Origin: an uncultured Clostridia bacterium
GTDB taxonomy: Bacteria > Bacillota > Clostridia > TANB77 > CAG-508
Length of the DNA: 64,000 bases
Direction: 5' to 3'
Assembly: GCA_947623725.1 (NCBI GenBank)
Contig: CANQHI010000004.1
Location: forward strand, 764 to 64,763
Below the pieces are notes generated by a model. The model was not told where the DNA came from, made no database searches, and worked only from the letters and a program-made list of their open reading frames with translations. Of this stretch, positions 16,369-17,620 are shown one piece after another. How positions within the stretch are numbered: position 1 is the stretch's first letter; every line of letters starts with the position of its first letter. A program made the position numbers and the translations under genes.

Positions 16369-17091
16369 CTACTCCCAATTATGATAAACATTCATTACAT
16401 CATCTAATTCTTCAAGTGCATCTATTAATCTTTGAACTTTTTCTTCTCCATCACTATCTAATGCAACTGTAGTCGTTGGTACCATTTGAACTTCTGCTTC
16501 TTCAAATTCTATTCCTTCTTTTTCTAAAGCTTCTCTAACTGTAGAAAAATTTGATGGATCTGTTGTTATTTCATAAATTTCTTCGTCTGTTACAAAATCT
16601 TCTGCTCCATTATCTATTGCAACCATCATTAAATCATCTTCTGATAAAAGTGACTTTGTTTTATCTATTACAATAACACCTTTTTTATTAAACATATATG
16701 ATACACAACCAGATGTTCCTAAGTTTCCACCTGCTTTATCAAATAAATGTCTTACATCAGCTGCTGTTCTATTTTTATTATCTGTACTTGCTTCTACAAT
16801 AAATGCAACTCCAGATGGTCCATATCCTTCATAAGTAATTTCTTCATATACTTTATCATTTCCTTCTCCTGATGCTTTTTTTATTGCATTTTGTATTGTA
16901 TCATTTGGCATGTTATTTGCTTTACATTTTGCTATTACATCTTTTAATTTTGAATTACCTGCTGGATCTGGTCCTCCTTGTTTTACTGCAATTAATAATT
17001 CTCTTCCTAGTTTTGTAAATACTTTTCCTCTTGCTGCATCTGCTTTACCTTTTTTTGCTTGAATATTGTGCCATTTGCTATGTCCTGACAT
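16369..17091 (-). CDS. yebC: YebC/PmpR family DNA-binding transcriptional regulator
   Basis: [43 protein letters not shown]... is the hallmark N-terminus. Confidence 0.95.
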
Positions 17092-17210
17092 TGTTAAATC
17101 CTCCTTTTATCTTCTTATTACTACCTAAAGTATTATAGCATAATTTATTGTATTTGTGTAGTGTCTTTTGCAAATTTTACTAGTGTCTAATATCAAATTT
17201 ACCATATCTC

Positions 17211-17240
17211 TTGACTTTTTACTTATTAATATATTATAAT
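17211..17240 (+). promoter_or_regulatory. sigmaA promoter TTGACT-18-TATAAT for the small RNA
   Basis: TTGACT at 17211..17216 and TATAAT at 17235..17240. Confidence 0.6.
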
Positions 17241-17246
17241 AAATAT

Positions 17247-17335
17247 AGGAAATGACAAATCCACAAACGTGGTTTTGCCCAGATTAAGATTTAATAAACC
17301 ATTAGCTAGGCACAGCAGAATGGTTTATTTTTTAT
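17247..17335 (+). ncRNA. candidate antisense/antitoxin sRNA (about 90 nt), convergent with the small toxin ORF
   Basis: Near-consensus promoter upstream, with no ORF or SD. It ends in the hairpin AAACCATT...AATGGTTT (17296..17326) followed by ATTTTTTATTT. Its 3' end overlaps the stop codon and 3' end of the minus-strand peptide gene. Confidence 0.5.
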
Positions 17336-17337
17336 TT
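17296..17337. terminator. shared bidirectional terminator of the convergent sRNA / toxin mRNA pair
   Basis: Stem 17296..17303 with 17319..17326. The T-run is on the plus strand, and an A-rich run precedes it (T-rich on the minus strand). Confidence 0.55.
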
Positions 17338-17451
17338 ATGTAGTTGCTTATCAATCCAGTTCTTATACAGAACTGCTGTCAAGGCAACGTTTAATGTTAA
17401 AGAAAACATTAATGATAATATTAAAAATAGTATCACTTTAACCATAAACAT
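17332..17451 (-). CDS. 39-aa hydrophobic peptide, candidate type I toxin
   Basis: Not in the ORF track because it is too short. ATG at 17451 is preceded by AGGAAAGGTGGTG. Translation is MFMVKVILFLILSLMFSLTLNVALTAVLYKNWIDKQLHK*: one TM helix plus a charged tail. The 5' UTR contains CCACC, which can pair with the GGTGG SD. Confidence 0.55.
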   Translation of the reverse strand: MFMVKVILFLILSLMFSLTLNVALTAVLYKNWIDKQLHK

Positions 17452-17526
17452 CACCACCTTTCCTACGAAGCTTCGTAAAATTGGTGGCAAAACCACATCT
17501 GCTAATTATCATTTCCTATGTTAATT

Positions 17527-17555
17527 ATTCTATAATATTATTTTTATTCTGTCTA
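17527..17555 (-). promoter_or_regulatory. promoter TAGACA-17-TAGAAT for the small-peptide mRNA
   Basis: Minus-strand hexamers at 17555..17550 and 17532..17527. Confidence 0.45.
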
Positions 17556-17570
17556 GTCCTTTTTCTTTAT

Positions 17571-17608
17571 AAATAAGATGAGCCCATTACAAATGCCTCA
17601 TCTTATTT
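17571..17608. terminator. hairpin downstream of the ABC transporter gene
   Basis: AAATAAGATGAG...CTCATCTTATTT 12-bp stem with T/A runs on both sides. Confidence 0.45.
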
Positions 17609-17620
17609 TTATAAAATAAT

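Follow-up and report, generated by a model that had tools for sequence, protein, structure and literature searches.

A candidate portable cassette of type I toxin-antitoxin architecture, with a predicted fold-back mRNA, in uncultured gut Clostridia

What kind of element sets a gene for a 39-residue peptide against a convergent small RNA (sRNA) and gives the two transcripts 5' ends that look alike over about 33 nt? The question is raised by a 64,000-nt stretch of DNA from an uncultured Clostridia bacterium (contig CANQHI010000004.1), which we call the window, where inspection of the sequence places both units in the 530-bp gap between yebC and an ABC-FtsX gene. The original prediction for this locus, made from the letters of the window, proposed a type I toxin-antitoxin (TA) arrangement with a shared bidirectional terminator and a shared 5' leader. 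Comparison with related loci upholds a convergent pair with type I architecture, composed of a small hydrophobic peptide gene and an antisense non-coding RNA, and leads us to revise the terminator and the leader. We favor, with a probability of roughly 0.55, a combined model in which the locus is an undescribed, portable type I TA-like cassette with a toxin mRNA that would fold back on itself. That the cassette pairs a type I TA-like peptide with an antisense RNA is, as a separate claim, likely on the comparative evidence. The whole cassette spans 17211..17555, about 345 bp, and is bounded by the two -35 boxes (Table 1).

The weight of the argument rests on relatives, because the window by itself offers little: promoter-like hexamer pairs are no rarer than chance in this 27% GC DNA (8 found versus 7.0 +/- 2.9 expected), and a simple terminator scan made no call at the central hairpin, the 15-nt loop of which accounts for its silence. 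A search for further copies was run across species-representative genomes, one per species, and returned 282 tblastn-confirmed loci, nearly all in metagenome-assembled genomes of uncultured gut Clostridia. Carriers include Clostridium sp. CAG:389, CAG:440 and Ca. Scatovivens, and the hosts are human, rabbit, ruminant and chicken. Comparative work used 80 of the 282 loci, which were fetched, and the structural alignment contains 52 members. Twenty-nine relatives were found with a GTG-extended form of the open reading frame (ORF) as protein query, and their read-through translations revealed conservation of the leader at the nucleotide level.

The 80 loci share one arrangement and spacing. Nearly all carry a toxin-type box about 65 nt upstream of the ORF and a convergent sRNA-type box about 240 nt downstream of it. 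In the alignment of related loci, column conservation is 90-100% from the toxin -35 to the sRNA -35 and collapses beyond them; likewise, 52 of 86 blastn matches to the window have 17555 as their end point, and the matches begin at 17195-17211. The flanks are unrelated from locus to locus, and yebC is a neighbor in no other copy. Comparable host genes are 67-79% identical in DNA, below the identity of the cassette. Ten assemblies contribute two loci each to the 80, and L004 and L080 each contain two copies in tandem. For eleven copies the nearest contig end is within 400 nt, a pattern that fits a discrete multicopy repeat at which metagenome assemblies break.

Within this unit, the ORF is a real gene by comparative measures, as it is intact and shows a coding-type pattern of substitution. 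Its length is 39 codons in 82 of 84 copies, its variable sites fall 13/5/16 at codon positions 1/2/3, and its replacements are conservative (I/V, L/F/I, A/S). The peptide (MFMVKV...KQLHK) contains one hydrophobic span at residues ~6-28, a basic tail (YKNWIDKQLHK) and no proline, which agrees with the transmembrane helix and basic tail described for it originally. A second in-frame ATG at 17445..17443 has better spacing to the Shine-Dalgarno (SD) sequence and would give a 37-aa product. Nucleotides 49-71 of the ORF (window 17383-17403) are invariant in the 52 aligned relatives, synonymous sites included, which suggests an RNA-level constraint inside the coding sequence; part of this stretch (TAAACGTTGCC) is complementary, with wobbles, to the SD/start region. 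Small ORFs that begin at an ATG inside each box (24 and 11 codons) were considered and rejected as not conserved as coding, since they use different frames in the two boxes and are shifted in frame among relatives.

The peptide belongs to no family in the collections searched. Pfam returned only DUF6535 at E up to 1, with 15 bits and under its cutoff, and NCBIfam, PHROGs, PADLOC and PDB sequences gave no match. A phmmer search against 1.84 billion cluster representatives yielded 12 clusters and no distant homologues: 11 are relatives at least 77% identical, and the top-scoring match, P0030 (1171 aa), was rejected as a repetitive ORF with 14 weak matches (…SLTIYPTWLDKLLHE…), its score reflecting chance inflated by repeats. 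The 54-aa GTG-extended ORF was not on record in an exact-sequence look-up, and a literature search for the peptide or box strings found no match.

Relatives also support the two promoters, which lie where they had originally been placed and which we regard as real on this comparative basis. The hexamers of both are kept among related loci while the spacers vary. The sRNA promoter, TTGAC(T/A) with TATAAT, is conserved and near consensus everywhere. The toxin promoter occurs as two weaker or different types, with TTGCTT-17-TGTTATACT replacing the TAGACA type in about 10 loci. Type I systems usually pair a strong antisense promoter with a weaker toxin promoter.

Between the convergent promoters lies a hairpin with an 11-bp, 100% complementary stem (AATAAACCATT / AATGGTTTATT, 17293..17303 / 17319..17329), followed on the plus strand by TTTTTTATTT. 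Relatives carry two sequence types of this hairpin, A (this window; AAACCATT..AATGGTTT) and B (CTCACATCTGT..AGATGTGAG), which differ by both-sided changes in 7 of 8 stem pairs and are joined by further compensatory variants; hairpin cells are paired in 99.8% of cases, versus 36-47% in slid controls. The original view of a terminator shared by both RNAs holds for the hairpin itself, which is real, conserved and followed by a good U-tract in the sRNA direction. It does not hold for the toxin direction: on the sRNA side, 49 of 52 members have a T-run of at least 6 after the hairpin, but on the toxin side just 13 of the 52 have one, and the run in this window is 3. By this comparison, a consistent role as terminator can be assigned to the hairpin for the sRNA alone, and the poor U-tract on the other side indicates that the hairpin is probably not the sole 3' end of the toxin transcript.

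In the fold of the predicted sRNA (17247..17337; -21.1 kcal/mol, z = -3.7), a 5' hairpin precedes the terminator, which has a U-tract of 6-8 U, and the 5' 33 nt of the sRNA are almost invariant in the 80 loci. The sRNA would span, in antisense, the toxin stop codon and the entire 3' untranslated region (UTR), with complementarity of at least 55 nt. The proposal of an antisense RNA with its own promoter is thereby strengthened at the level of conserved hexamers, a covarying terminator and this complementarity. A search of Rfam at E up to 10 gave no relevant hit in the region, and no family passed its gathering score across the 64-kb window. Different hairpin types, A and B, occur with identical boxes in tandem or same-genome copies (L004 3425-3700 / 3932-4211; L021/L022; L039/L058), and such co-occurring types could set cognate sRNA-mRNA specificity through loop-loop contact.

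We next consider the sequence that the two 5' ends have in common. The box TAGGAAATGA-N-GTGGTTTTGCC lies at 17246..17279 (+) and 17486..17518 (-); these are its only copies in the 64 kb, with 0.00 expected in shuffles. The two boxes are thus present as first reported. They are, however, not identical and most likely not a shared leader; what is kept between them is pairing in the toxin sense. RNAalifold, applied to an alignment with the toxin box at one end and the sRNA-box complement at the other, gives 29 pairs with 0 broken cells in the 52 sequences. Read in the toxin sense, the helix cells comprise 1330 Watson-Crick pairs, 178 G·U pairs and 0 mismatches; read in the sRNA sense, the same 178 are A·C. 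Even the box middles, which differ in sequence, stay complementary through G·U. With relaxed extraction, which gave 69 units, single-sided transitions that keep pairing in the toxin sense outnumber those that keep it only in the other sense by 10:2, and 3 further G·U pairs are fixed. Columns outside the helix in the same alignment show no such bias (19 versus 28 transitions, 51 transversions; Fisher p = 0.0025, binomial p = 0.003). An internal positive control is the 5'-UTR hairpin: no RNA but the toxin RNA can form it, and it too varies by wobble alone.

A DNA repeat or a shared leader predicts no strand polarity, from which we infer that the toxin transcript reaches at least 17246. On these comparative grounds, the shared box is probably a 5'-3' helix of the toxin-sense RNA. 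This reading implies a full-length toxin mRNA of about 280 nt (17519 to ~17240, with a putative 3' end) that fully overlaps the sRNA. Because the sRNA is the complement of the 3' arm, its 5' end would necessarily resemble the toxin 5' end. Predicted energies are consistent with this arrangement: the full region folds to -99.8 kcal/mol in the toxin sense (z = -10.4) versus -75.4 on the other strand (z = -6.9), and the toxin sense is more stable by 13-38 kcal/mol in all 52 members. In the full-length model, the first 10 nt of the toxin mRNA have an unpaired probability of 0.04, which rises to 0.5-0.7 with the sRNA site occupied. A pairing of the toxin 5' box with the left arm of the hairpin, which appeared in the minimum free energy structure of the truncated transcript and is possible in both types, was superseded by the much stronger 5'-3' helix when the 3' arm was added. 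As a method, G·U strand polarity can separate an RNA helix from a DNA inverted repeat where columns are too conserved for covariation.

The same folds bear on how the ribosome-binding site (RBS) would be hidden. In the truncated toxin mRNA, GCCACC pairs with GGTGGT around a conserved inner hairpin; the long form adds a pairing of the ORF-internal TAAACGTTGCC (17383..17393) with GGTGATGTTTA. The GCCACC/GGTGGT pairing is invariant among relatives, and the stem of the 5'-UTR hairpin is invariant or changes only by wobble while its loop varies. Across 13 members and three modeled states, the predicted probability that the SD is unpaired is 0.1-0.3. Pairing of CCACC with the GGTGG SD around a palindrome had been noted at the outset, and its presence, its invariance in the family and the predicted burial of the SD give that observation further support.

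Several points weigh against the fold-back model. The polarity of helix versus non-helix columns draws on about 15 substitution events and on consensus-based polarity rather than phylogeny; most helix columns are invariant, which leaves the helix with no classical two-sided covariation; and 6 transversion singletons among the 69 units break it. After the 3' arm there is no canonical terminator but just a U-rich stretch, TATATTTATTAT, that doubles as the sRNA -10 region, and in the 13 of 52 members with at least 6 T in the toxin direction many toxin transcripts may stop before the 3' arm. Recent horizontal spread, rather than constraint, could be the reason, at least in part, that copies from different species are so highly identical in nucleotide sequence. 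In addition, no predicted structure exposes the SD, which leaves synthesis of the peptide unexplained.

The strongest competitor keeps the TA pair and ends both RNAs at a bidirectional terminator, with a 3' overlap of about 50 nt and with the 33-nt leader as a common cis element: a 5' stabilizer, a ribosome- or protein-binding site, or a +1..+33 operator that co-regulates both promoters. We consider this unlikely, though it has evidence in its favor. Its hairpin is real and conserved, with a good U-tract both ways in some members, and a bidirectional terminator is the rule for convergent RNAs of the par/Fst family (PMC7472228). The RNA duplex prediction proposed with the original reading, once run, shows that the 3' overlap alone would form a 55-bp duplex of -83 kcal/mol, and AGGAAATGA, found at both 5' ends, looks like an SD with a start codon. 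Against it, every difference between the boxes and 10 of the 12 single-sided transitions keep toxin-sense pairing only, whereas a common cis element predicts no polarity; the box middles differ in sequence and yet remain complementary through G·U. The toxin-direction U-tract on which this alternative depends is poor in most members, this window included. Nor does the sRNA 5' domain appear to act on the toxin start in a par-like or SprA1-like manner: its complementarity to the toxin 5' region is at the level of shuffles (-17.3 versus -17.2 +/- 3.1 kcal/mol), and that candidate was rejected. A 12-nt imperfect match to AUGUUUAUGGUU exists and is not relied on for such action.

The fold-back model, if correct, suggests the following sequence of events. 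A moderate promoter would drive an mRNA that encodes a membrane peptide of 39 (or 37) aa with a single span, and a near-consensus convergent promoter would drive a non-coding antisense RNA of about 90 nt. The RBS would always be buried, either by the upstream GCCACC or by the ORF-internal complement. The central hairpin would act as an efficient stop for the sRNA and as a partial stop for the toxin transcript, and in a toxin transcript that reads through (~280 nt, ~17519 to 17240), the 3' end would pair with the transcript's own first 33 nt to form a panhandle that hides the 5' end. The sRNA would first touch the exposed hairpin loop of the toxin mRNA; a perfect duplex of about 90 bp with the sRNA, more stable than the G·U-containing panhandle, would then displace the toxin 5' end. 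Predicted energies of -64.9 kcal/mol for the sRNA with the 3' arm and -45.8 for the panhandle arms imply that the sRNA could displace the 5' arm. Displacement would expose the toxin 5' end, create an RNase III substrate and leave GCCACC free to hold the SD, and the toxin message would be silenced and degraded.

The analysis shows the anatomy of the cassette, its conservation across the family, the coding signature, the covariation of the hairpin and the strand-specific substitutions of the 5'-3' helix; where the transcripts end, that the peptide is toxic, how the RNA-RNA events are ordered and which nucleases act are inferred parts of this scheme. In Firmicutes, an exposed 5' end favors attack by RNase J1/Y, and a 90-bp duplex is an RNase III substrate. 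Data from Clostridioides difficile point to RNase J, Y and III (PMC5961336). We tentatively propose, as a step that may well prove wrong, that the antitoxin RNA is a molecular mimic of the toxin mRNA 5' end and displaces the 5' arm of an end-to-end helix weakened by G·U pairs. If this mechanism is true, it links the Gram-positive style of a 3'-side antisense RNA with the hok/AapA style of a 5'-3' locked mRNA and would constitute a compact, portable RNA switch.

In a second alternative the locus is not a TA pair, and the peptide would be a non-toxic small membrane protein, for example a regulator or an accessory subunit, with expression tuned by a cis-antisense RNA. Many small single-span proteins are non-toxic, and simple tight regulation would agree with the predicted burial of the SD in every state modeled. 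This explanation is rather improbable, and somewhat more so than the previous one, given that related loci share no partner gene or neighborhood and that the unit is multicopy, sometimes tandem, set in unrelated contexts and better conserved than host genes. The unit also brings its own strong antisense promoter, and its decayed, partial and IS-disrupted copies fit an autonomous, addictive or selfish module better.

Such copies are described here as observations. Partial cassettes were seen in L021, L066 and L072 (near position 4001 in each): one has the toxin gene and hairpin and lacks both the sRNA promoter and the sRNA box, and two have unrelated sequence in place of the toxin promoter and 5' box. 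They are probably decaying copies. In L032, an IS3-like element (4150-5620; orfA 190 aa, orfB 273 aa) sits inside the central hairpin loop and splits the toxin gene from the sRNA promoter and box. L086 (1-644) is a 644-nt metagenome contig with two back-to-back cassettes, the second of which carries, 23 nt upstream of its toxin-type box, a fused sRNA-type promoter and box, with the junction right after GTGGTTTTGCC. Either the shared box was a site of recombination, or the contig is a chimera produced in assembly.

A non-autonomous element resembling a miniature inverted-repeat transposable element (MITE), or a recombination site, with the ORF and promoters as incidental cargo or chance, is very improbable. 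It would suit a portable, multicopy unit with sharp boundaries that is often found at contig ends and has an inverted repeat near both of its ends. The repeats are not terminal, however, and lie about 35 nt inside the conserved ends, and 57 modules showed no target-site duplication and no shared 10-mers, inverted or direct, in their flanks. No transposase was associated in the flanks examined, and a distant-mode blastn search of plasmids and phages gave no match; a scan of IMG/VR for the box returned 3 matches, which were rejected as chance occurrences in GC-rich unrelated DNA without the peptide. Moreover, the ORF and promoter hexamers are under selection, and the wobble polarity is that of an RNA helix, not of a DNA site. 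Least probable of all is that the adjoining transporter exports the peptide as a leaderless bacteriocin or some other secreted, membrane-active agent, since, despite a 39-aa, cationic, Trp-containing, hydrophobic peptide with a 1091-aa ABC/FtsX fusion directly upstream in the window, an ABC homologue lies within 4 kb in only 8 of the 80 related loci and never in the same arrangement, there is no immunity or modification gene, and an antisense RNA and buried SD are foreign to bacteriocin operons.

How does the cassette compare with known type I systems? To our knowledge, such modules are almost never annotated and, among Clostridia, have been characterized only in C. difficile. The family described here adds at least 282 loci in uncultured low-GC gut Clostridia to type I TA-like modules; current pipelines miss the cassette because its peptide and RNA are absent from Pfam, NCBIfam and Rfam. 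Type I toxins are in general small (~20-60 aa) hydrophobic peptides with a transmembrane segment and a charged C-terminus, encoded by stable mRNAs that sequester the RBS in their fold; the peptide is toxic when overexpressed and is neutralized by a labile antisense RNA, transcribed from its own promoter and complementary to the toxin mRNA (PMC6563280, PMC8594479). The classification in T1TAdb includes Gram-positive systems with 3'-side antisense RNAs (PMC8594479). Three of these general features are found in the cassette at the sequence and comparative level: the type of peptide, an antisense RNA with a promoter and predicted RBS burial.

The peptides of the C. difficile modules CD2517.1/RCd8 and CD2907.1/RCd9 are 50-53 aa long, compared with 39 aa for the peptide here. 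These modules are nevertheless close in design: they come from Clostridia, their convergent transcripts overlap, the RBS is buried in a toxin mRNA of ~300 nt that has a long 5' UTR, and the product is a small membrane peptide charged at its C-terminus (PMC5961336). RCd9 is a short 3'-side antitoxin, overlapped over 134 of its 134 nt by the 298-nt toxin mRNA (PMC5961336). The C. difficile peptides show no sequence relationship to ours in the phmmer search of 1.84 billion representatives, and a 5'-3' helix of the kind predicted for the cassette is not reported for these modules in PMC5961336. Neither CRISPR array nor prophage association of the cassette was seen in the flanks examined.

A 3'-side antisense RNA is also found in bsrG/SR4 and txpA/RatA of Bacillus subtilis. 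In bsrG/SR4, the two RNAs first meet at the antitoxin terminator loop, their duplex serves as a substrate of RNase III, and binding of SR4 at the bsrG 3' end alters pairing at the distant SD (PMC3834814). The long-range effect predicted for the cassette differs in that it would fall on the 5' end of the mRNA and leave SD accessibility unchanged. The cassette also differs from the B. subtilis systems in not being prophage-borne, as far as seen, and membership of TxpA/RatA, BsrG/SR4, BsrE/SR5, YonT or SprA/SprG (Staphylococcus aureus) found no match in Pfam, NCBIfam, PDB or Rfam (E up to 10).

The par system (Fst/RNA I-RNA II) of pAD1 has convergent promoters, a central terminator hairpin, an SD-sequestering 5' stem-loop, a helix that hides the extreme toxin 5' end and a repeat close to each of the two 5' ends, and its peptide has a charged tail and places a Trp at the membrane boundary; in all of these it resembles the cassette (PMC7472228). 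Its repeats, DRa and DRb, are direct, which makes the RNAs complementary at their 5' ends and lets the antitoxin block the start, whereas the repeats of the cassette are inverted and make the RNAs alike; box against box gives -13.1 kcal/mol. The peptide lacks the PXXXG motif of Fst/Ldr and has no Fst match in Pfam. Convergent promoters and a central hairpin are present as in Fst/Ldr; as to the bidirectional terminator of that family, a T-run of at least 6 is found in 49 of the 52 members for the sRNA and in 13 for the toxin.

The full-length hok mRNA is closed by a 5'-3' fold-back. Full-length Hok and AapA1 mRNAs are inert and stable until 3' processing, and events at the 3' end change the fold (PMC5416894). 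The cassette would resemble hok/sok (plasmid R1) and aapA1/IsoA1 (Helicobacter pylori) in the predicted 5'-3' closure of its toxin mRNA. The antisense RNAs of hok/sok and aapA1/IsoA1 target a 3'-processed mRNA at its 5' leader or start region; in contrast, the cassette sRNA is complementary to the 3' arm of the fold-back, would compete directly with the toxin 5' end and is antisense to the stop codon and 3' UTR. They differ further in their Gram-negative hosts and toxin families, and the peptide has no match to HOK_GEF in Pfam. A 3'-side antisense RNA that competes with a 5'-3' fold-back would, as a candidate novelty, have no counterpart among the type I families in the literature compared. 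From the absence of any family, RNA, plasmid or phage match, we suggest that the cassette is a new family of a known kind, type I TA, with its mimicry and fold-back logic a candidate new variant.

Table 1. Features of the cassette and its neighbors in the window.
Feature	Position	Strand	Basis or remark
yebC	16369..17091	minus	Pfam TACO1/YebC
Predicted sRNA promoter, TTGACT-18-TATAAT	17211..17240	plus	11/12 consensus matches; cassette edge
Predicted 3' arm of toxin-sense helix, complement of sRNA 5' box	17246..17279	minus	alignment, folds, substitution pattern
Predicted antisense sRNA, ~90 nt: 5' hairpin CAAATCCAC/GTGGTTTTG, variable linker, terminator hairpin and U-tract	17247..17337	plus	fold and conservation
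Central hairpin: predicted sRNA terminator; internal 3'-UTR stem-loop or weak terminator of toxin mRNA	17293..17329	both	inverted repeat, family changes
39-codon ORF MFMVKVILFLILSLMFSLTLNVALTAVLYKNWIDKQLHK (17451..17335; stop 17334..17332)	17332..17451	minus	ORF listing
ORF-internal TAAACGTTGCC, second predicted partner of SD/start region GGTGATGTTTA	17383..17393	minus	full-length fold
5'-UTR elements: anti-SD GCCACC (17488..17483), palindrome TACGAAGCTTCGTA (17477..17464), SD GGTGG (17458..17454)	17452..17488	minus	inverted-repeat scan and folds
5' end of putative toxin mRNA, 5' arm of predicted 5'-3' helix (shared box)	17486..17519	minus	box location; toxin-sense pairing with 17246..17279
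Predicted toxin promoter, TAGACA-17-TAGAAT	17555..17527	minus	10/12 consensus matches; 17555 is the outer cassette edge
ABC-FtsX fusion gene, 1091 aa	17621..20896	minus	directly upstream of the cassette

Transcription of the toxin mRNA is predicted to start at ~17519. Every element of the original prediction (both promoters, UTR elements, ORF, hairpin and box) was found at the place assigned to it. Some observations concern the surroundings of the cassette. A second repeat of about 20 nt, AATAGTAAGTTGTCGCT(nAG), lies inverted 70-150 nt outside both ends of about 15 related cassettes and also occurs in head-to-head pairs about 40 nt apart; it is found at 19 loci in all and is absent from the window. 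Examples are L002 3852(+), 4287(-) and 4326(+); L007 3854(+) and 4268(-); and L073 3851(+), 4872(-) and 4910(+). These repeats could be boundary marks of a larger repeated unit. In the window, a 23-nt inverted repeat (AAATAAGATGAG...CTCATCTTATTT, 17560-17619) lies immediately upstream of the toxin promoter and is probably the terminator of the ABC-FtsX gene, which would shield the cassette from read-through. Positions 1-64000 are 25-28% GC, with a skew that stays between -0.24 and -0.31 along the whole 64 kb, and this GC skew indicates that the minus strand is probably the leading and coding strand over the whole window.

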